DNA of 60,719 nt, counting the filler, from Globobulimina sp. (Eukaryota): NCBI GenBank assembly GCA_003354225.1. It is 11 parts of 11 records of this genome, joined end to end, with 100 filler letters (N's around TTAATTAATTAA, not from the genome) between each part and the next. Parts side by side here need not be neighbours in the genome. Positions count along the whole stretch, not along the records: positions 16,609 to 22,040 come from PIVH01000576.1; 10 more parts are not named here. One strand, given 5' to 3'. The notes under the pieces are model-generated. The model made no database searches, had not been told where the DNA came from, and saw nothing but the letters and a program-made list of their open reading frames with translations. The position numbers and the translations under genes were made by a program. Below, piece by piece: positions 1,663 to 22,140 of this stretch (position 1 is its first letter; each line of letters starts with the position of its first letter).

Positions 1663-4600
1663 TTACATTTTCATTCTACTATTTTTTCGTGAAGTACGTG
1701 GTTTGTTAGTTGCAAAAGTTGAGGATTTTCTGCAACTTTTTTTCCGCTTTTTGGGTTTCATGAGTTCCACCATCAATTTTTCTAACGTTTGTTCGAATTG
1801 ACCTTTGTCTTTTTTTTCTTCTGTTTCTTTGTCAGATCGATCCTCTAACAATGTTCTCGCGATTCTGTCATATTAATTATTCTCAAATAAACACAAAAAA
1901 AGAAATAAAAAATAAGATTACTCAACGATTCTGAGACCACAGTGTTGATTAATTTGGGTCTATAAATTGAATGATCATCAAAATAGGACTTTCTTTTGAT
2001 TTGTGGCGAATTGGTGTGTTGCACATCATTGCTGTTCATTGCGTCCATGTTGCGGCCATTATTATTATCATTGGATACATTTTTGTTTGTGATGTTACCA
2101 AATAATTTCCATTCTATGTTTTGTCCAAATTGACCCAACAAAATTCCATCTAAATTCCATAATATTAATTGGCCGCTATCTGACGATGAACAAAACACAT
2201 CAAATCCAGGTATATATAATAACGATGTAATACATCCTTTTTGATGCGGTTTCCATTCTTTCACTAGAATAAAATCCATAGTTTTATGCAAGTTTTGTAT
2301 ATCAAACAATTTCATTGTAACATCACAGTCGGCGATCATTAATCTTGTACCTAACTCATTGACGGCAATGTATAATATCGGTTCATTAAATATATATTTA
2401 TCTGATATCGATGTGACATATTTAAAACACTGTTCCTTCTCAAAAATATGTATTATTCCCTCTTCTGTTCCAACAAATAAATACCAATTTGATTTGTTCC
2501 CATTTAATTTATGAGCATACATAGCTGTGATAGAAACATATGGCTGCTTACACTCAAATATTTGCGATTTTACATTTGAATCGATATGCCATTCAATAAT
2601 GACACCATCAGAAGAGCCAGTTAATAAATACTGCTTTGTTATACACATAGCTCTCACGTCTGTTTTATGCAATTTGTTTTGCAGAATAAAATTGGCTTCG
2701 CTGGGTGCTAAATGTGATGGGCATCTATTAACAATGCAACTATATCCACAGCAAACTACGCAATGCAACGTTCTTGGCAAATATATTAAATTTGTAATTT
2801 CAAAATTAACTCTGGGGAATTGGTGCATTACCGCACCATTATTAAAATTCCACATTTTAATTATTCCGTTTTGCGAAGCTGTCAATAATCGTTTGCCAAT
2901 CTCATCGATTGCTATTGTTGCTATTGAGTCACTTGAATTGGAATCACAGTTATTATTCATTTTGAAATTAAAACTATTTTGTCCGGTTTTAATGTCCCAT
3001 AAAATACACGTGTCGTCAACATGGACACTGATAATTTGCTTAGCGTATTAGCACACAACTTGTTATTCCGAAGTGTACACATTTATATTTTTTGCACCGT
3101 ATACAAGTGGTGTGACAATAAAAAATACCTGGAATATATTTGAATATACAATATCTATAATTGGTGCTAAGGTTTTATCCGTATTGTCATTACATTTCTT
3201 ATTTTGAACATACCATTTTCTAAATTTACTGCCAGCGGTAATCAGACAGGATTGATAAGGGTCATATCGAATGGCTGATATTTCATTAATGGGCGAATGT
3301 ATTGATGTATCACGCATTGTTTGCAAGCATTTCCATGTTCGCATGTCCCAGATTTTGATTTTTTTATCCCGCGATGCCGTAATAATTTGATTGCTTTGTT
3401 CGTTGATTAACACAGCAACAACGGAGGCAATATGTCCTTTTAATAAACCTAAAGGTTTTGTTATGTATGGATCCCAAACGCATATTTTGCGATCGTATCC
3501 CGCTGATATTAACATTCGATGTGACGTCGATGAGTATGCAATTGAATAAACACCGCGTGTATGACCAGACAACGTACGGATTTTACACCATTTCACACAA
3601 TCTGTGACATGGATGTTTGTATCCATTCCCGCACTCACAATGCCAATACGCGGTACGTTCTTAACTTGTTTTACGACACACGGACCATTGCTATTTTCCT
3701 CACCATGGCAACTGACGCGAACTAAGCAATTATGATCCAAATAGTTATATAATCCAATCGTGCCATATGTTTCACCAATCAATAATGTCGAATCTTTCTC
3801 ATTAAATATTTCCATACACATTGGAATGTCTAATGCAAAAAACGAGTGTTGCAAATCATAATAAATCTTATTATTGTTTTTATACTTTTTATTATCAATT
3901 ACATTAATTACTGATTGTTTGTTATTGTTGTTCAACGTTGGTGAATAAATATGGATCGATCTATCCATAAACGACACTGCTAATCGCGTCAGACCATCAC
4001 TTTCATTCCCATTCAAACAACATAAATTTGTACAGTTGTTATCTAAATTAATACTGCTTTCTAATTGTAACGACATCGCATTCCTTATTTGTATACAATT
4101 ATCAGATGTTAACACTGCATACTTGGAGCTATTCAATGTGCATTTTGAGCTTTGTTCGCCGTTAATTATACGTATTTTATCAAACATGTGATTTCCTGTG
4201 CAATTATTATAAACAGTGCTGAAATGTTCCTTGTAATAGGATACGTTTTTGTTTTCCTGTTGGTCCCAAAGATGTGCTTGTTGCTGCGATAAAAAACTGA
4301 CATATTCTCCCCATGATAACGTCTCATCTCCGTCGGCATCCATTTTCTGAAATAAAACGTCAAATTCTTGCTTTGGTTTCCCGAACATATTTGATAATAA
4401 TGATGAAAATTCCGAACAGGACAAACCATCGCCATCTACACATTCCCACAATTTCTCTACGAGATGAAGGCAACATATTAAGTCGTCATCGTCATTGTCA
4501 TTGTCATTATCTACGTCCTTGTATTCTCTTCTTATTTTTGACAATAATTTTCCAGCTTGTTTGAATGTCAATTTTCCAGAGGATAATTCTTGCCGAATTT

Positions 4601-5439: not shown

Positions 5440-5539
5440 NNNNNNNNNNNNNNNNNNNNNNNNNNNNNNNNNNNNNNNNNNNNTTAATTAATTAANNNNN
5501 NNNNNNNNNNNNNNNNNNNNNNNNNNNNNNNNNNNNNNN
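5440..5539. other. Artificial contig linker (N44-TTAATTAATTAA-N44); identical linkers at 10975-11074, 16509-16608, 22041-22140, 27573-27672, 33103-33202, 38631-38730, 44157-44256, 49680-49779, 55202-55301
   Basis: Identical 100-nt spacer with stops in all six frames; contig lengths fall from 5439 to 5418 nt along the window. Confidence 0.98.
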
Positions 5540-10974: not shown

Positions 10975-11074
10975 NNNNNNNNNNNNNNNNNNNNNNNNNN
11001 NNNNNNNNNNNNNNNNNNTTAATTAATTAANNNNNNNNNNNNNNNNNNNNNNNNNNNNNNNNNNNNNNNNNNNN

Positions 11075-16127: not shown

Positions 16128-16608
16128 TGTTTAGCTGTAAGATTGAGTTGTGAGTGAGGGTGGAAATGCAAAGGAAAATTGAGTAGTGAGTACCTAGCTA
16201 GGTTTATCTGAACATTTTAACGATATAGATATTTAGTGCTGACTCATCGTTTGCCGTTTGGTTATTTTACAGGATGGACGTTCATTTAGGGCACATTGCG
16301 ATATTTGGTGGAATTGTTGTAAATTTGCCAATGGGACTTACCTACGTGTTTGTCATACTTGAGCATGTAAATGAAGTTTGTTAAATAATAGAATTTGGAA
16401 GGAAAATAGGTTAATAATAAAATGTTAAAGGTAACATTTAACTTTTTGCTTTTCAGTTTGAAATTACTGTTTTTTACTGAAACTCTTTGAATTTACAGTT
16501 TTTTACAGNNNNNNNNNNNNNNNNNNNNNNNNNNNNNNNNNNNNNNNNNNNNTTAATTAATTAANNNNNNNNNNNNNNNNNNNNNNNNNNNNNNNNNNNN
16601 NNNNNNNN

Positions 16609-18126
16609 ATCGCTGTAATTGATTCCGTTGTCAGCCCTTGGTTGCGAAAAGGATCCGAGGAAATTTTTGGCTTCCAAGTACATTTGTGTCTTTTTCCTGG
16701 TCGTGGGGTTATATGGAATTCTGGGAAACGAATCTGTTCCAGAAACGAGACGTATATCTGTCAAATATGTGTGACTTATAAGCCACGGAGTGGTCAAGTA
16801 CGTTCCGATTCGTCGATCTGTAGATACAACAAACAAGAAGACGGTAGAAGGCAGGAAATTGTCATTAAATATGGTTTCCCTTATCGTTTGTACACCGATT
16901 TGCTTGGAAAATTCGTAGCCTACAATAAATCAAAATTTTCTAACAGAATTTGGCACAATTCCCACTAAATGTGGCCCACAGAAAATTCTGACTAAATTTG
17001 AACCATAAAATTTCAAACTTACTTTTAAGCCATTTAACCGGATAAGCGGCCGGCGATTTTTGTACCGCCTCCATTATGGACAAATGAAGTCCAGTATTCA
17101 ATCTGATTTTGCGATAGGACATAGTGATTTGGTCTAAAAATTATATAATTAGCCAAAAAATTATAGAAACGGTCAATTTACTGATAACAATTTTCTGATT
17201 TCTTTGTTCCACCGGTACTATGTCACTTCTGACCAAAAATTTTGCGACGGACGGATGCAAAGTAAACGACATGTCCACCAAAGGAAGTAGAAGTCGATTT
17301 TGATTAGTTATGGGGCTGACGATTCTACAAATCATGTCAAAATCGATCGATAGTTGGCTTTCATTGCGTCTGGCTTTGAAACCTGAAAATATACCTAGTA
17401 TAAAACAGATGCAAAAACCATCATTTCAAATAATAAAAATAAAATAGTTCTGGTGAGGATCGAACTCACTTCTTTAAACGCACTACGTTCAACGCACTAC
17501 CGGTAGTGCTACAGAACTACAGAGTTAAAAAGCAAAAACTTTGGCTTTTATAGTAGCAATCACACTTTTTCAACTTAATTTCGAAGAATATACATACCCA
17601 GATTTTCGTCAGTGGCCAAATCGAATTTTGCCATAGTATCCCGCCAAATGAAGGAAACAAAGTTGTACTGACCACCATATTCGGTTGATTTTCTGAAAAC
17701 GTTGTCCAAATAGGCGACATACGGATATGTATCAGCATTGGAAGTGACAGAAGTGGAATTTCCGACTACAACATTCACTCAACTGAACATACTCATGGCA
17801 AAATTGGCAATAGGTGCGCAGGGGGCATTTTGATCTGCGATTTGACTTCCATCTCCATTTACTACTTTGGCATTAATATGCAATCTAATACTGGATGGGT
17901 CGAGAAATCGTTCCACATCGCCTTTGATATTGAAAATGATATCGGATCCTTCAGTGTAAATGCCTGTGGGTAATATTGATTCATCATTTATTTCTTGGAT
18001 TTGTACTTGAAGTTCCTTTTTAAGGAAAAGGTTTAGTTCAGGCAAATCTACTACCGGTTGAAGTCCCAGTTGACTTGATGTATCAATGGGAGTGCCAGAA
18101 TGACGCTTTTTACCTTTAGGGGCCAT
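16609..18126 (-). CDS. Maverick/adintovirus major capsid protein (PY/hexon-like), exons 18126-17598, 17382-17182, 17133-17023, 16919-16609 (384 codons, 3'-partial), one in-frame TGA at 17779-17781
   Basis: ELNLF, IIFNIKG, FLDPSSIRL, NFAMSMFS, TYPYVAYL, WRDT, NQNRLLL, AAYPV, LPSTVFLFVV and DNGINYSD follow the Maverick MCP motif series in order after splicing. Confidence 0.85.
16920..17022 (-). other. Predicted spliceosomal intron 3 of the capsid gene (103 nt, phase 1)
   Basis: Donor A|GTAAGT, acceptor TTGTAG|GC; joins YPVKWLK-S-YEFSKQ in frame with ORF 16561-16836. Confidence 0.82.
17134..17181 (-). other. Predicted spliceosomal intron 2 of the capsid gene (48 nt, phase 1)
   Basis: Donor A|GTAAAT, branch-like GCTAAT, acceptor TTTTTAG|AC; removes an in-frame TAA; gives KIVINQITMSYRKIRL. 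Confidence 0.78.
17445..17518 (-). ncRNA. tRNA-like Pol III ncRNA nested in capsid intron 1
   Basis: AGTTCTG/CAGAACT 7-bp acceptor stem, GCAC/GTGC D-stem with GG loop, TTGAAC/GTTTAA stem with loop GTAGTGC, GTGAG-TTCGATC-CTCAC T-arm, then A and TTTT. Confidence 0.75.
17546..17552 (-). promoter_or_regulatory. TATA box (TATAAAA) at -34 to -28 of the tRNA-like RNA
   Basis: Position matches upstream TATA elements of TATA-assisted Pol III genes. Confidence 0.55.
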
Positions 18127-18566
18127 TATGTAAACAGTTTCAAAAGGTTGGTCAAAGCTTGGACTTTTTTGGTAGGCTTTTTCTGAGCAACTTTCTTTCC
18201 ACCAACTGTCTTTGGATTGATTTTCTTTTTATTACCAGCTTTATTGACAGGTTTTTTGGCTTTACTATTTTTGCCAGAAATGATGGGGATCGCTTTTTTC
18301 TTAGTTTTCGGTTTAGGAGGGGGATCCGGAGATTCTGGGGAATCGGAAGGTTCAGGGAAGGTCAAGGTTTGTACATCAGACGAAGAACAATGTCCTCCTG
18401 TCGGCAAGGGGTTGTCAAAACCGTGGCTATATTGCCAGTAGAGATTTTGGGGACCAACTGATTGGGGTGGACCAGAAAGCAGGTTACTGAACTTCTTGGC
18501 GAACTGTTGCTGGATAGTTTCGCCTGGCAATTCCGTTTGAAAGTTGTTAGACGAGTAAGTAGCCAT
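18126..18566 (-). CDS. Small Lys/Pro-rich basic protein between the capsid genes (putative DNA-binding core protein)
   Basis: 146 aa, histone-H1-like K-rich C-half; stop overlaps the MCP start (TAATG). Confidence 0.65.
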   Translation of the reverse strand: MATYSSNNFQTELPGETIQQQFAKKFSNLLSGPPQSVGPQNLYWQYSHGFDNPLPTGGHCSSSDVQTLTFPEPSDSPESPDPPPKPKTKKKAIPIISGKNSKAKKPVNKAGNKKKINPKTVGGKKVAQKKPTKKVQALTNLLKLFT

Positions 18567-18595
18567 AGCGACCGATTATCGATTGATGATTCACA

Positions 18596-19345
18596 CTAAA
18601 TGACACGCCTTTTCAATGTCATCTCTATTGCGCAATAGCTATGATTCATAAAGCGTGGGCGTGTTGCGAAATCGTTTCCAAACAGTTTTATAGGTATACG
18701 ATCGAAATGATTGACAGCAAGTTCCGTCCACCGTTCACTACCTTCGAAGGTCCATGATACGAATCTGCTGTAGGTGGTTTGTTTGGGATCAAATTGCAGC
18801 ACACGCAAAATGGGTAAAGCCCCAACAGGTGTCCACTGTGGTTTGACCAAATCGGACGAAATATACATGGGGGTCACTTTATCGTACATATCCGGCAAAA
18901 GTTTGGCCAGACTAGTTACATTGTATATCGAAGGGGCCGGTTCGAAACCAAGTATACTGGCCAAAGCTGGCGAAAATTTGACCCTGACATTGCCCGTTAG
19001 TGTCAGTTTTATTTTTCGGGTACTTTCCTGCAAACTAAGATTAACAGAAGTCGGTGTTCTGCCATTCAAGTAAGACGTTATCGCTGAAGGAATATCACAG
19101 TTTTTGGGTTCGCAATAAACGGGTCGAAAATCGGCTTCCGTAGGCCTTTTGTAATAAAGAATACAGTTTTGGTCCACATTTTCGATATTGCACTCCAAAG
19201 TAACCGATTTTATTGCGACTTGATAAGGACCAGTCAAAGACAAAGTGCCAGGCAATTTTGCTTCGAATTCGCCATTTCGCCATGATTCAGGTTCGCGGGC
19301 CATTTTTGTAGAAATAAATAAAGTAAAACTTCCATCGTCAGCCAT
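18596..19345 (-). CDS. Maverick/adintovirus minor capsid protein (penton-like)
   Basis: FTLFIS...FEAKLPGTLSLTGPYQVAIKSV; MYISSDLVKPQ...LPILRV; C-terminal MTLKRR; 8-nt overlap with the integrase stop. Confidence 0.85.
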   Translation of the reverse strand: MADDGSFTLFISTKMAREPESWRNGEFEAKLPGTLSLTGPYQVAIKSVTLECNIENVDQNCILYYKRPTEADFRPVYCEPKNCDIPSAITSYLNGRTPTSVNLSLQESTRKIKLTLTGNVRVKFSPALASILGFEPAPSIYNVTSLAKLLPDMYDKVTPMYISSDLVKPQWTPVGALPILRVLQFDPKQTTYSRFVSWTFEGSERWTELAVNHFDRIPIKLFGNDFATRPRFMNHSYCAIEMTLKRRVI

Positions 19346-20465
19346 TTCTTTTGGACAAGGGTAATTTCAATTTTTCATAAGTCGATTGATCCAACCATCT
19401 ACGAAAGTTCTTGCTGTGACCAATAAAATCGACCAAATATTCCTTTTGACCGTTTGCCAAAGTACGTTGATCGATAGTTTTATCGATGACCCTGAATTTT
19501 TCAAAGTCAGGTTCACTTGCTATTAAGTCCCGTTCATGAAAATATCCTCTTACTCGATCTCCCGCTGTGTCAACGATTTCATATGTTACAGGATAGGTTT
19601 GGCGTTGGGCGCTGATTCTATAGACAGCAGAACTGAAACCAGGCAAACTTTTCTTGTAAAATGGTGACTTTTCTGTCACATGAATTCTGACAAAGGATCC
19701 CACTGGAAATTTGGGGTTCTGAACAGCCATAGTTTTGTCCTTTAAATATTTGGCGTAACGCATATTGAATACCAGTCCTGCATTTTTCAGTTCACTCGCT
19801 TCTTCCGGACTTAGTTTGGTCACTGTATTCGGGGTTTGGTTTATAGAAGTTAGAATTTTCGGTAAAATAGTAGAAACGTCGGCCGATCTGCCCATATGGG
19901 TACTGTACTTGTTCAATTTAGCCCTAATTCGTGAAATTGCCTTTTCACTTAAAAAAGCTTTTTGAAATCGACCGTGTGTGACAGAATGTTTTGTGTCAAG
20001 ACCTTTTGCCAGCGTTTTGTATTCTGTTCCCATATCTGTTCTAATTGTCAGAGGGGTAATGCCCGAATTCTGGTCCTTTATGATCTTTTTCAGTGTATCC
20101 ACAGTAGTTTTGGCCTTTAAATTTCGTTGACATTTGGCTAACACTTTTCCGGTAAATTGATCTACGCATACTTGCATGTATTTCAATTTACTATGTTTAA
20201 ATTGCCCACTATCGCATTGCCAGTTAAGATTTTTGTTGGTGACCACAAATCTGGGGTATTGCGTATTTTTGAATTTAGGTTTTCTCGGTCTTAAATGGCG
20301 TAAATAGACGTTCTGGTTCAATAAAAATCGCCTGACTTCTTTCATCGATACAGTGGGATTGAATTTTTTGGCTGCCAGATATAGAACATTTATTCCGGAA
20401 TAACTTCCTGGCTGGTCCAAATCGAAATACAGTTTTTTCAACAAATTTTCGTTAGGTGAAGCCAT
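19338..20465 (-). CDS. Maverick-type retroviral-like (rve) integrase with C-terminal chromodomain-like region
   Basis: LYFDLDQPGSYSG; DDE triad in WQCD / RTDMGTEY / KAFLSEK; PKFPVGSFVRI; PVTYEIVD...GYFHERDL; KEYLVDFIGH...RRWL. Confidence 0.93.
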   Translation of the reverse strand: MASPNENLLKKLYFDLDQPGSYSGINVLYLAAKKFNPTVSMKEVRRFLLNQNVYLRHLRPRKPKFKNTQYPRFVVTNKNLNWQCDSGQFKHSKLKYMQVCVDQFTGKVLAKCQRNLKAKTTVDTLKKIIKDQNSGITPLTIRTDMGTEYKTLAKGLDTKHSVTHGRFQKAFLSEKAISRIRAKLNKYSTHMGRSADVSTILPKILTSINQTPNTVTKLSPEEASELKNAGLVFNMRYAKYLKDKTMAVQNPKFPVGSFVRIHVTEKSPFYKKSLPGFSSAVYRISAQRQTYPVTYEIVDTAGDRVRGYFHERDLIASEPDFEKFRVIDKTIDQRTLANGQKEYLVDFIGHSKNFRRWLDQSTYEKLKLPLSKRNG

Positions 20466-20820
20466 TTTTTACAAATCAACAACAAAACACAACCTACTTC
20501 ACTACACGACAAGTGGGTATTATGACCGAACATGTTATATTGGTGCCAAATTTAAATAACATTTATTTTTTCAAAAAATCGAAAATCACAACAAAACCTA
20601 ATGCATGGTTAATTTAATTCGATCAGTTATTAAAAAAGTCCAGTCAAATGCTATGCAGTGTAGTGTATCGATTTGGAAGGGAGCCAACCAGGAGCCTAAT
20701 ACACCCACACACATTGCGCAACTGCAATTCTTGTGTCATAGGCGATGAATCTCGACACGAAATTACTTACTGCAATCCTACGAAATCTTGTATTACGTCA
20801 TACAGTTGTGTGTTTTCAAT

Positions 20821-21270
20821 ATGGCAGGTAATCTAATGTTTTACAAATCCCTTGAAGAAGTGCTTCCCCTGAACGATGTTATCAAAGAAAATTGCTTCGG
20901 TTGCAGTGTCAACCATCCAAGTCAGAAACAACACGATCTTTGTTTAATGAGTGGTTATGGTACAAAAGTAAGATTATGTTACCAAGAAGCTTTGAACCGA
21001 GTTCCTAGAAATATATTGATGGAAAACCTTATGAATCGAATCAAAAATTCCGACAAAGATTTCAAGGACATTTTCGAACAACTTTTCTTCGAATCCGATC
21101 CATTGGAACGAATCAAGTACGATGGGGAAATGCAACTTGAATTTGTATGTCTTCTATTGCACAAGGAAATGCCCTATCAAATCAATGGTTCAGACAGAGG
21201 TAAAATCTATGCCATTTGCGAGCAATATGACCACGATCAAGACCAGATAAAAGTGAATTTGACCAAATAA
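20821..21270 (+). CDS. Accessory protein with CxxC-x3-HPSQ-x2-H-x2-C putative Zn-binding motif
   Basis: ATG 20821; CFGCSVNHPSQKQHDLC; AATAAA overlapping the stop (21266-21271). Confidence 0.7.
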   Translation: MAGNLMFYKSLEEVLPLNDVIKENCFGCSVNHPSQKQHDLCLMSGYGTKVRLCYQEALNRVPRNILMENLMNRIKNSDKDFKDIFEQLFFESDPLERIKYDGEMQLEFVCLLLHKEMPYQINGSDRGKIYAICEQYDHDQDQIKVNLTK

Positions 21271-21403
21271 ATATTGTTTATTGGCTTTCATGGGTTTCGT
21301 CAAATAAAATATATTATTCTTAAGACACTTAAGACACACGATGTCAAATCAGGCCCATACGATTATTATTATTTTATTATTACGTCATAAAAATACAAAT
21401 CGA

Positions 21404-21880
21404 TCACTTTTCTTTTATCACGTGTGCCCATGTACCGTTATTTTGTATCCAGTCAGTCAATCGAGAATCAATATAGACTGCGAGCCAATCGCAAACGTTT
21501 CCAATTACTTGAGGTATGGCCTTTTCCAAACAATGGATTGAAAGTTTGCCGCAAAAGGCGAACAATACATAGATTTTAGCCCAATCCGAGCCACTGTCAA
21601 ATAATCTAGTATTAACCAGGTCCATAAATTCAGGAAAAGCGGTTTGTGGGGAAATTTTTAATTCAGATATCATATCAAATATCAACCCGTCCATGGTCAA
21701 TTCCTTTTCTGTGCATTTCATTCTCAAAATATAATCAACGGATTCGGGTTCAGGTAATTCTGGGCAATCTTCGAAATCGAATTCCTCTATTGAAAGTCTC
21801 CATTTAATATATTGCAAGGATGTAATACTGAGAAAAGCTTCGGGTAAATCGCCATCGAAATCAGGTACTAACGAAGCCAT
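21404..21880 (-). CDS. Bcl-2 family protein (vBcl-2-like), 158 aa, no C-terminal TM anchor
   Basis: BH4-like YIKWRL...CPELPEP; BH3-like LRMKCTEKE; BH1 LFDSGSDWAKIYVLFAFCGKL; BH2 WIQNNGTW. Confidence 0.88.
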   Translation of the reverse strand: MASLVPDFDGDLPEAFLSITSLQYIKWRLSIEEFDFEDCPELPEPESVDYILRMKCTEKELTMDGLIFDMISELKISPQTAFPEFMDLVNTRLFDSGSDWAKIYVLFAFCGKLSIHCLEKAIPQVIGNVCDWLAVYIDSRLTDWIQNNGTWAHVIKEK

Positions 21881-22140
21881 ATTTGATATCAAACAGATAT
21901 CTATAACGTTCAACAAGTGGTACTGAATCAAAAAATAATTACTATTTCTTCACTTACTTTTCTTAAATCGATCAATCAGCGACGAGCAGACAGTCTTAGG
22001 ACATTACGTAATCGATTTCGTAATATATTATAATAGACGCNNNNNNNNNNNNNNNNNNNNNNNNNNNNNNNNNNNNNNNNNNNNTTAATTAATTAANNNN
22101 NNNNNNNNNNNNNNNNNNNNNNNNNNNNNNNNNNNNNNNN

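Follow-up and report, generated by a model that had tools for sequence, protein, structure and literature searches.

A Maverick/Polinton-type capsid gene with three probable spliceosomal introns in a contig of a Globobulimina sp. assembly

Giant viruses, Mimivirus and Faustovirus among them, are known to include capsid genes with introns. In nematode Mavericks the core genes are described as intronless (Widen et al., 10.1101/2022.07.12.499685), and intact vertebrate Mavericks are reported to be intronless as well, the 'introns' modelled by an aligner being insertions in degraded copies (Barreat & Katzourakis 2021, PMC8097293). Two large surveys of endogenous viruses used prokaryote-style calling of open reading frames (ORFs), which they justified with the statement that introns are absent from viral genes. 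Here we describe a probable piece of a Maverick/Polinton element whose major capsid protein (MCP) gene appears to be divided by three introns. It lies in a window of 60,719 bases, the whole stretch of DNA analysed, from Globobulimina sp. (assembly GCA_003354225.1). The window consists of 11 unrelated contigs of 5,418-5,439 bases each, joined via N44-TTAATTAATTAA-N44 linkers, and the capsid gene is carried by the fourth contig (PIVH01000576.1, positions 16609-22040, 5.4 kb, 38% GC). Because genes across a linker are not real neighbours, gene neighbourhood is meaningful within 16609-22040 only. A preliminary description of this DNA had recognized the split capsid gene, but had missed that it is truncated at the contig end, that the contigs are joined artificially, that intron 1 contains a tRNA gene and that this copy is probably defective.

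The MCP gene is read on the minus strand (Table 1). A search with exon 1, in which the single in-frame TGA was translated as X, returned 478 proteins at E<=1e-3, and the best 150 of these include full-length forms of ~430-445 amino acids. A profile of 435 positions was built from the 48 full-length homologs (410-480 amino acids) among these best 150. As a test free of any splice model, all 103 six-frame stop-to-stop pieces of 16609-18300 were searched with this profile. Five matched, with independent E-values (i-E) of 2.5e-26 to 9e-5, while the next best piece reached E 0.89; all five lie on the minus strand and are ordered along the profile. When translated separately, the exon pieces gave i-E 5.5e-28 to 4.5e-06 and their ends abut: the split codons fall at profile positions 161, 225 and 262, no residue is lost or repeated, there is neither gap nor overlap, and the 384 codons contain no frameshift. 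All three intervening segments have GT..AG ends and T-rich 3' ends exactly where the profile homology stops, and their GC content is 21-32% versus 40-42% in the exons. The probability of finding GT and AG by chance at three homology boundaries is below 1e-5, a rough estimate from base composition and not a computed test. With GT-AG ends, seamless junctions and AT-rich interiors, the three segments most likely behave as U2-type spliceosomal introns. The three phase-1 GT-AG segments, their coordinates, the 384 spliced codons and the gap-free order of the MCP pieces given in the preliminary description were all borne out, with no indels at the three junctions against the MCP profile. Self-splicing group I or II introns were considered and rejected, as segments of 48 and 103 nucleotides (nt) are too short and an Rfam search over 17300-17700, a region that takes in intron 1 alone, gives only a tRNA (E<=1); at gathering level, Rfam gave no match over the whole window.

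Table 1. Features of the window and introns of the two related loci (L001, L002); window positions count along the whole stretch, those of L001 and L002 along their own records.
Feature	Position	Strand	Properties and evidence
Artificial linkers	5440-5539, 10975-11074, 16509-16608, 22041-22140 and six more	.	N44-TTAATTAATTAA-N44
MCP (double jelly-roll) gene, first 384 codons, 4 exons	16609..18126	-	five pieces match the 435-position profile in order
Exon 1, 529 nt, ATG at 18126	17598..18126	-	profile positions 13-159; N-terminus aligns with P0003 and P0004
In-frame TGA, codon 116	17779..17781	-	sense codon in aligned relatives, basic residue in the closest
Intron 1, 215 nt, phase 1	17383..17597	-	GTATGT...TTTTCAG, 32% GC; junction codon at profile position 161
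tRNA-Thr (anticodon AGU) gene inside intron 1, then T-run	17445..17518	-	ARAGORN 17444-17519, Thr(AGT)
Exon 2, 201 nt	17182..17382	-	profile positions 162-223, i-E 2.7e-13
Intron 2, 48 nt, phase 1	17134..17181	-	GTAAAT...TTTTTAG, 21% GC, in-frame TAA; junction at profile position 225
Exon 3, 111 nt	17023..17133	-	profile positions 227-258, i-E 4.5e-06
Intron 3, 103 nt, phase 1	16920..17022	-	GTAAGT...TTGTAG, 30% GC; junction at profile position 262
Exon 4, open into contig end	16609..16919	-	profile positions 269-349, i-E 8.6e-12; linker begins at 16608
Small lysine-rich ORF between penton and MCP	18126..18566	-	L001/L002 counterparts 24-31% identical
Penton (minor capsid) protein, uninterrupted, 249 codons	18596..19345	-	predicted fold and BFVD
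rve (retrovirus-like) integrase, uninterrupted	19338..20465	-	Pfam rve E 1.4e-07, 32.1 bits, just under the 32.6 cut-off
Bcl-2-like ORF, upstream of integrase	21404..21880	-	Pfam Bcl-2 E 9.3e-16
L001 intron, 46 nt, phase 1	3147-3192		GTAAGT..TTTTTAG; profile position 225
L001 intron, 48 nt, phase 2	3434-3481		GCAAGC..TTTTTTAG; profile position 305
L002 intron, 49 nt, phase 0	2725-2773		GTAAGT..TTTTCAG; profile position 78/79
L002 intron, 52 nt, phase 1	3015-3066		GTAATG..TCTTTAG; profile position 158
L002 intron, 53 nt, phase 2	3518-3570		GTAATT..TTTTCAG; profile position 305

Judging from profile matches and from the predicted fold of a homolog, the gene is a Maverick-type double jelly-roll MCP, a family whose members have ~435 residues; the contig end cuts it at 16609, ~68 profile positions short. 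The double jelly-roll anticipated in the preliminary description was seen in the model of P0006, the closest full-length homolog (36% identical to exon 1), and the fold is thus that of this homolog and not of the window protein itself. The P0006 model, made with the 48-sequence alignment, has a predicted local distance difference test (pLDDT) score of 92.1 and a predicted template modelling (pTM) score of 0.89. Its best match in the PDB (Foldseek) is the Sputnik MCP (3j26_A, E 7.5e-16, template modelling score 0.69), followed by the MCPs of Singapore grouper iridovirus (SGIV), Paramecium bursaria chlorella virus 1 (PBCV-1) and mavirus. In BFVD a protein of Cotesia bracovirus ranks first (E 4.7e-24, 21% identity), ahead of adomavirus LO7, Adintovirus and MELD virus proteins. 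Sequence searches against characterized families gave less: neither the MCP pieces nor the penton nor the small ORF has a matching model in Pfam or PHROGs, and among PDB sequences the MCP profile found only adenovirus hexon, non-significantly (E 0.32, 0.61). Near relatives are present in protein databases mostly as short fragments. A homolog search with exon 1 restricted to longer proteins found none, and 12 of the 14 best exon 1 matches are shorter than 360 amino acids, a state to which short contigs also contribute.

Two related loci, L001 (PJEL010007397.1) and L002 (PJEL010031851.1), both from one public record set, were returned by a scan of metagenome contigs; a scan of viral contigs returned no relatives. 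They are sources separate from the window contig, because that contig fits both search patterns yet was not returned. No nucleotide similarity was found between the window and either locus. Their capsid exons are about 36-65% identical to the window at the protein level and about 30-58% identical to each other. Together they carry five introns, four of them GT-AG and one GC-AG. Each of these lies in the MCP gene, and no exon contains a stop; in L001 the capsid gene is complete, from an ATG at 2360 to a stop after 3857. Position 225 in phase 1 is common to intron 2 of the window and an intron of L001, and position 305 to L001 and L002. At this latter site the GC-AG intron of L001 (GCAAGC...TTTTTTAG) has the same position and phase as the GT-AG intron of L002 (3518-3570). 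The three elements thus have eight introns at six positions (78/79, 158, 161, 225, 262 and 305), two to three per element and all in capsid genes, while two integrases, three pentons and three small ORFs of the window, L001 and L002 have none.

Protein databases hold what might be traces of such introns, in fragments encoded on short public contigs. In P0005 (80% identical), P0002 and P0012 the profile match ends at 161-162 and is followed by 4-11 unrelated residues, and these tails begin as expected for read-through into GT(A/T)...; likewise, in P0003 the match stops at 224 and the tail resembles intron read-through. P0004 has an in-frame insert of 17-18 residues at position 225. Two more fragments, P0123 and P0076, end at position 162 as well, with ambiguous tails. 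In related elements the capsid gene has introns too, some at the same positions and others elsewhere, and for this reason the introns are most likely an inherited trait of the lineage and not damage. Of the two explanations offered in the preliminary description, a gain of introns specific to the capsid gene in this lineage is the one favoured by capsid-only introns in divergent relatives of the same gene order, some of them at the same position.

Could the segments instead be ordinary insertions or junk in a decaying pseudogene, with GT-AG ends and frame-restoring lengths arising by coincidence? The premature TGA of the window copy would suit such decay, and so would the tRNA-like sequence in intron 1, of the kind that short interspersed nuclear elements (SINEs) are built from; the insertions that an aligner modelled as 'introns' in degraded vertebrate Mavericks (PMC8097293) provide a precedent. 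Nonetheless, we consider decay extremely improbable: GT and AG sit exactly at the homology boundaries in all three segments, with no residue lost or doubled and no frameshift in 384 codons, an arrangement whose chance was roughly estimated as below 1e-5. Moreover, the L001 intron shares position and phase with intron 2, and five more such segments occur in stop-free relatives.

The 215-nt intron 1 is four times longer than the introns of the relatives because a tRNA-Thr (AGU) gene lies inside it. When the region was searched alone, the tRNA scored 45.2 bits with Rfam RF00005 against a gathering score of 29, although the run over the whole window missed it. Its fold has a z of -3.9, and the model has two extra bases in the anticodon-arm region. 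No tRNA was found in L001 or L002. Polinton-like viruses have been reported with tRNA genes. Contigs of a sequencing run, X1, other than those that span the locus match only this ~80-base tRNA part, which points to look-alike tRNA sequences elsewhere in the sample.

This repeated, tRNA-like unit also bears on whether the segments are introners, or introns derived from other mobile elements, that were inserted after integration. Such introners have been reported from about 25% of viral elements in some dinoflagellates, including full-length Maverick-like proviruses (10.1101/2025.03.18.643946). On the other hand, the introns of the window have no similarity to each other or to the rest of the stretch, and the additional X1 contigs cover only the tRNA part of the introns. 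Position 225 is also shared across about 40% protein identity, and seven of the eight introns measure 46-103 nt. Introns of this length are too short for typical transposon-derived introners. We therefore hold an introner origin to be very unlikely.

Codon 116, the in-frame TGA, probably acts as a genuine premature stop. A reading of TGA as a sense codon was rejected, as TGA terminates the integrase and the Bcl-2-like ORF on the same contig. With such a stop, the copy has probably lost its function, and the capsid gene of the window would be defective or dead. As the TGA precedes all three exon junctions, nonsense-mediated decay would be the expected fate of any mRNA from this copy.

The contig is present in run X1, while two sister runs contain next to none of it. 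X1 contigs span introns 3 and 2 (16843-17242, 0 mismatches) as well as intron 1 and the TGA (17263-17797, 1 mismatch whose place within the contig was not located). None of the X1 contigs carries the exons in joined form, which contigs could not be expected to reveal. Because X1 is probably the source sample, it is not independent support for the assembly. The other ten contigs of the window have 29-38% GC and carry ordinary eukaryotic genes (myotubularin, WD40, SPRY, MatE) in long uninterrupted ORFs, the longest on contigs 1-3 and 5-11 including an 837-amino-acid myotubularin and an ORF of 1685 amino acids. A comparison within the stretch found no sequence shared between the capsid contig and these ten, and the stretch holds no second copy of the element. 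A crude scan of the ten contigs for short introns gave 14 candidates, mostly implausible, and so neither tied the capsid contig to them nor separated it from them. The capsid contig may come from a different organism within the same sample.

On the minus strand the genes follow each other in the order Bcl-2-like ORF, rve integrase, penton, small basic ORF and MCP. The integrase is matched by the integrase core of human T-lymphotropic virus 2 (HTLV-2; E 4e-4) and is 44% identical over 351 amino acids to L002 365-1408. The penton was modelled (18599-19345) from a four-sequence alignment with moderate confidence (pLDDT 68.8). VIA-align placed this model closest to mavirus 6g41_A (Z 12.4), PBCV-1 (Z 12.0), Sputnik 3j26_N (Z 11.6) and the adenovirus penton base (Z 9.8), and its BFVD matches are adomavirus LO5, the mavirus minor capsid protein and the MELD virus penton. 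A homolog search with the penton ORF alone returned nothing, and one with a three-sequence penton alignment only two proteins. As claimed in the preliminary description, integrase and penton are uninterrupted ORFs, and their adjacency to the capsid gene holds within 16609-22040 only.

The same order recurs in the relatives. L002 has integrase (44% identical), penton (31%), small basic ORF (31%) and MCP, and L001 has penton (26% identical), small basic ORF (24%) and MCP. Downstream of the L001 MCP there are sub-threshold matches to Peptidase_C39 (E 0.022), C48 (E 0.072) and Pox_A32 (E 0.0016); no polymerase was found on the examined parts of L001 and L002. The small ORF is conserved in place (L001 1974-2354; L002 2093-2494), with a lysine-rich tail and a shared N-terminal part containing PTGG. 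It has no Pfam match, and all its leads in the protein atlas stay below 0.9; our guess is that it encodes a DNA-binding protein or a protein of the virion core. The TAA of this ORF and the ATG of the capsid gene overlap (TAATG, 18124-18128), the TGA of the integrase lies inside the start region of the penton (ATGGCTGA, 19338-19345), and in L002 a stop and a start overlap as ATGA at about 2490-2497. These overlapping stops and starts form a compact, virus-like arrangement that is kept in the relatives. With a double jelly-roll MCP, a penton and an rve integrase on one contig, sequence matches and predicted folds together indicate part of a Maverick/Polinton (adintovirus-like) element.

The upstream end of the contig offers some further observations. 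The Bcl-2-like ORF may be cargo of the element or a flanking gene, and run X1 contains contigs of diverged paralogs, one of which skips 199 nt (21564-21764). Just upstream of its start, a possible 35-nt GTAAGT...TTCAG segment was seen by eye (21923-21957, minus strand), which could be an intron of the 5' untranslated region. The plus strand, opposite to these genes, has an ORF of 173 codons at 20749-21267, situated between the integrase and the Bcl-2-like ORF; no known family matched it, its best Pfam hit having E 0.25.

The gene neighbourhood is also where a longer association with the host has to be weighed. The introns could be real and yet have been gained during long vertical residence in a host genome, the lineage being immobile or domesticated, rather than an active virus-like element, and its capsid gene host-like. 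The mosaic presence and absence of introns, with two to three per element over six positions, resembles intron turnover in host genes. Neither terminal inverted repeats (TIRs), a polymerase nor signs of recent copies were seen, the stretch has no second copy, and the look-alikes of the intronic tRNA in run X1 are as expected of a host tRNA family. Against this, the compact order with its overlaps (TAATG, ATGA, ATGGCTGA) has been kept, along with intact integrase and penton ORFs, in three elements that are about 40-50% identical in protein, and one would not expect an integrase to stay next to a capsid gene that had been domesticated. The spliced MCP of L001 is complete and stop-free, and is followed by weakly protease-like and A32 ATPase-like ORFs; the window copy has a premature stop. 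We consider such a host-resident origin unlikely. Domestication, the other explanation raised in the preliminary description, is in particular unlikely for the window copy, with its premature stop, its compact viral gene order with overlaps and the lack of a host flank.

In our view the capsid contig is probably a piece of a Maverick/Polinton (adintovirus-like) element, with an MCP gene whose three U2-type introns are inherited in its lineage and are not damage. As the element presumably replicates as DNA, the introns would be copied along and persist in its copies. The capsid pre-mRNA would be made in the nucleus by RNA polymerase II, and the host spliceosome would then remove the introns to yield the double jelly-roll protein. 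Splicing may aid the export and expression of an abundant late protein, which could explain why introns are found in the capsid gene only.

Several points weigh against this view. The introns are read from genomic sequence, on a contig with low read depth (5-9) in a single run, and clear ~50-nt introns of the GTAAGT..TTTTCAG kind did not emerge from the crude scan of the other ten contigs. A premature stop interrupts the copy, and the contig ends within its capsid gene. Given the one unplaced mismatch in an X1 contig, a sequencing error at the TGA could still be at play. A polymerase, a protease, an ATPase and TIRs are not visible on the 5.4-kb contig, which includes neither end of the element, so that full Maverick membership and activity of the window copy cannot be shown. 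Conservation of intron positions in other copies, proposed as a check in the preliminary description, turned out to be partial. At the DNA level only intron 2 is shared with a relative (L001). Intron 1 appears to be common to P0002, P0005 and P0012, as suggested by the ends of these protein fragments. An intron of L002 is found at 158 and, being three codons upstream of position 161, was counted as a different site. Intron 3 (position 262) is unique to the window copy, being absent from L001, L002 and P0004.

Food for further thought is why the capsid gene should be the one to carry introns. A bolder proposal, to which we give only a small chance, is that the whole clade keeps host-type introns specifically in the capsid gene because they are useful, and that the introns double as landing pads for cargo such as an RNA polymerase III tRNA gene. 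Possible uses would be a late-gene switch via nuclear splicing, a boost of export or translation, or a disguise from surveillance of intronless foreign genes.

For the probable inherited introns that we favour, the practical consequences are more immediate. A capsid gene in three to four exons would be scored as capsid-less or decayed by surveys that call ORFs only. The preliminary description had foreseen such miscalls, and the published surveys do state that endogenous viral genes lack introns; the miscalls would bias counts of 'intact' elements as well as capsid phylogenies. Introns confined to the structural gene, at positions partly shared across about 40-50% protein identity, point to Maverick capsid expression that may depend on the nuclear spliceosome, and they supply a concrete set of junctions for reverse transcription PCR (RT-PCR).

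How does this locus compare to known systems? Among virophages, whose genes are not expected to contain introns, the capsid proteins of Sputnik (3j26) and mavirus (6g41-6g45) have the same folds as the MCP homolog and the penton, at a sequence identity of only about 10-13%. The Mavericks/Polintons of vertebrates and nematodes likewise encode an rve integrase, a double jelly-roll MCP and a penton, and the nematode elements have a cargo region with intron-bearing genes between the element end and the integrase, a place taken here by the Bcl-2-like ORF. They differ in that their capsid genes are described as intronless, whereas each of the three divergent elements considered here has two to three precise introns. 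The adintoviruses (Starrett et al. 2021, PMC8502044) are animal-associated and Polinton-like, combine an MCP, a penton and an integrase, and include Bcl2 homologs among their accessory genes. The main text of that study contains no 'splic' words and mentions 'intron' solely for group II maturases; moreover, no polymerase is visible on the contig by which the element could be placed among them.

In the literature found, supplements being outside its scope, spliceosomal introns in Maverick-type elements are described only as dinoflagellate introners, and an earlier mention in print is possible. The dinoflagellate Maverick-Polinton-like proviruses (Gozashti & Corbett-Detig 2025, 10.1101/2025.03.18.643946) resemble this element in that spliceosomal introns occur in integrated elements that keep their capsid genes. 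Those introns, however, are multi-copy, transposon-derived introners of protists, mostly thought to have been acquired after integration, while the introns described here are short, have unique sequences, share positions between divergent elements and are found in the MCP gene only. A second likeness is offered by Punuivirus, an endogenous giant virus of Chlamydomonas (10.64898/2026.10.09.758095), in which 61 of 506 genes have host-type GT-AG introns that were missed by a first ORF-based annotation. There, introns are reported to mark latency genes and not virion genes, and the MCP gene has a group I intron; here, it is the structural MCP gene that carries the introns, next to an integrase that has none.

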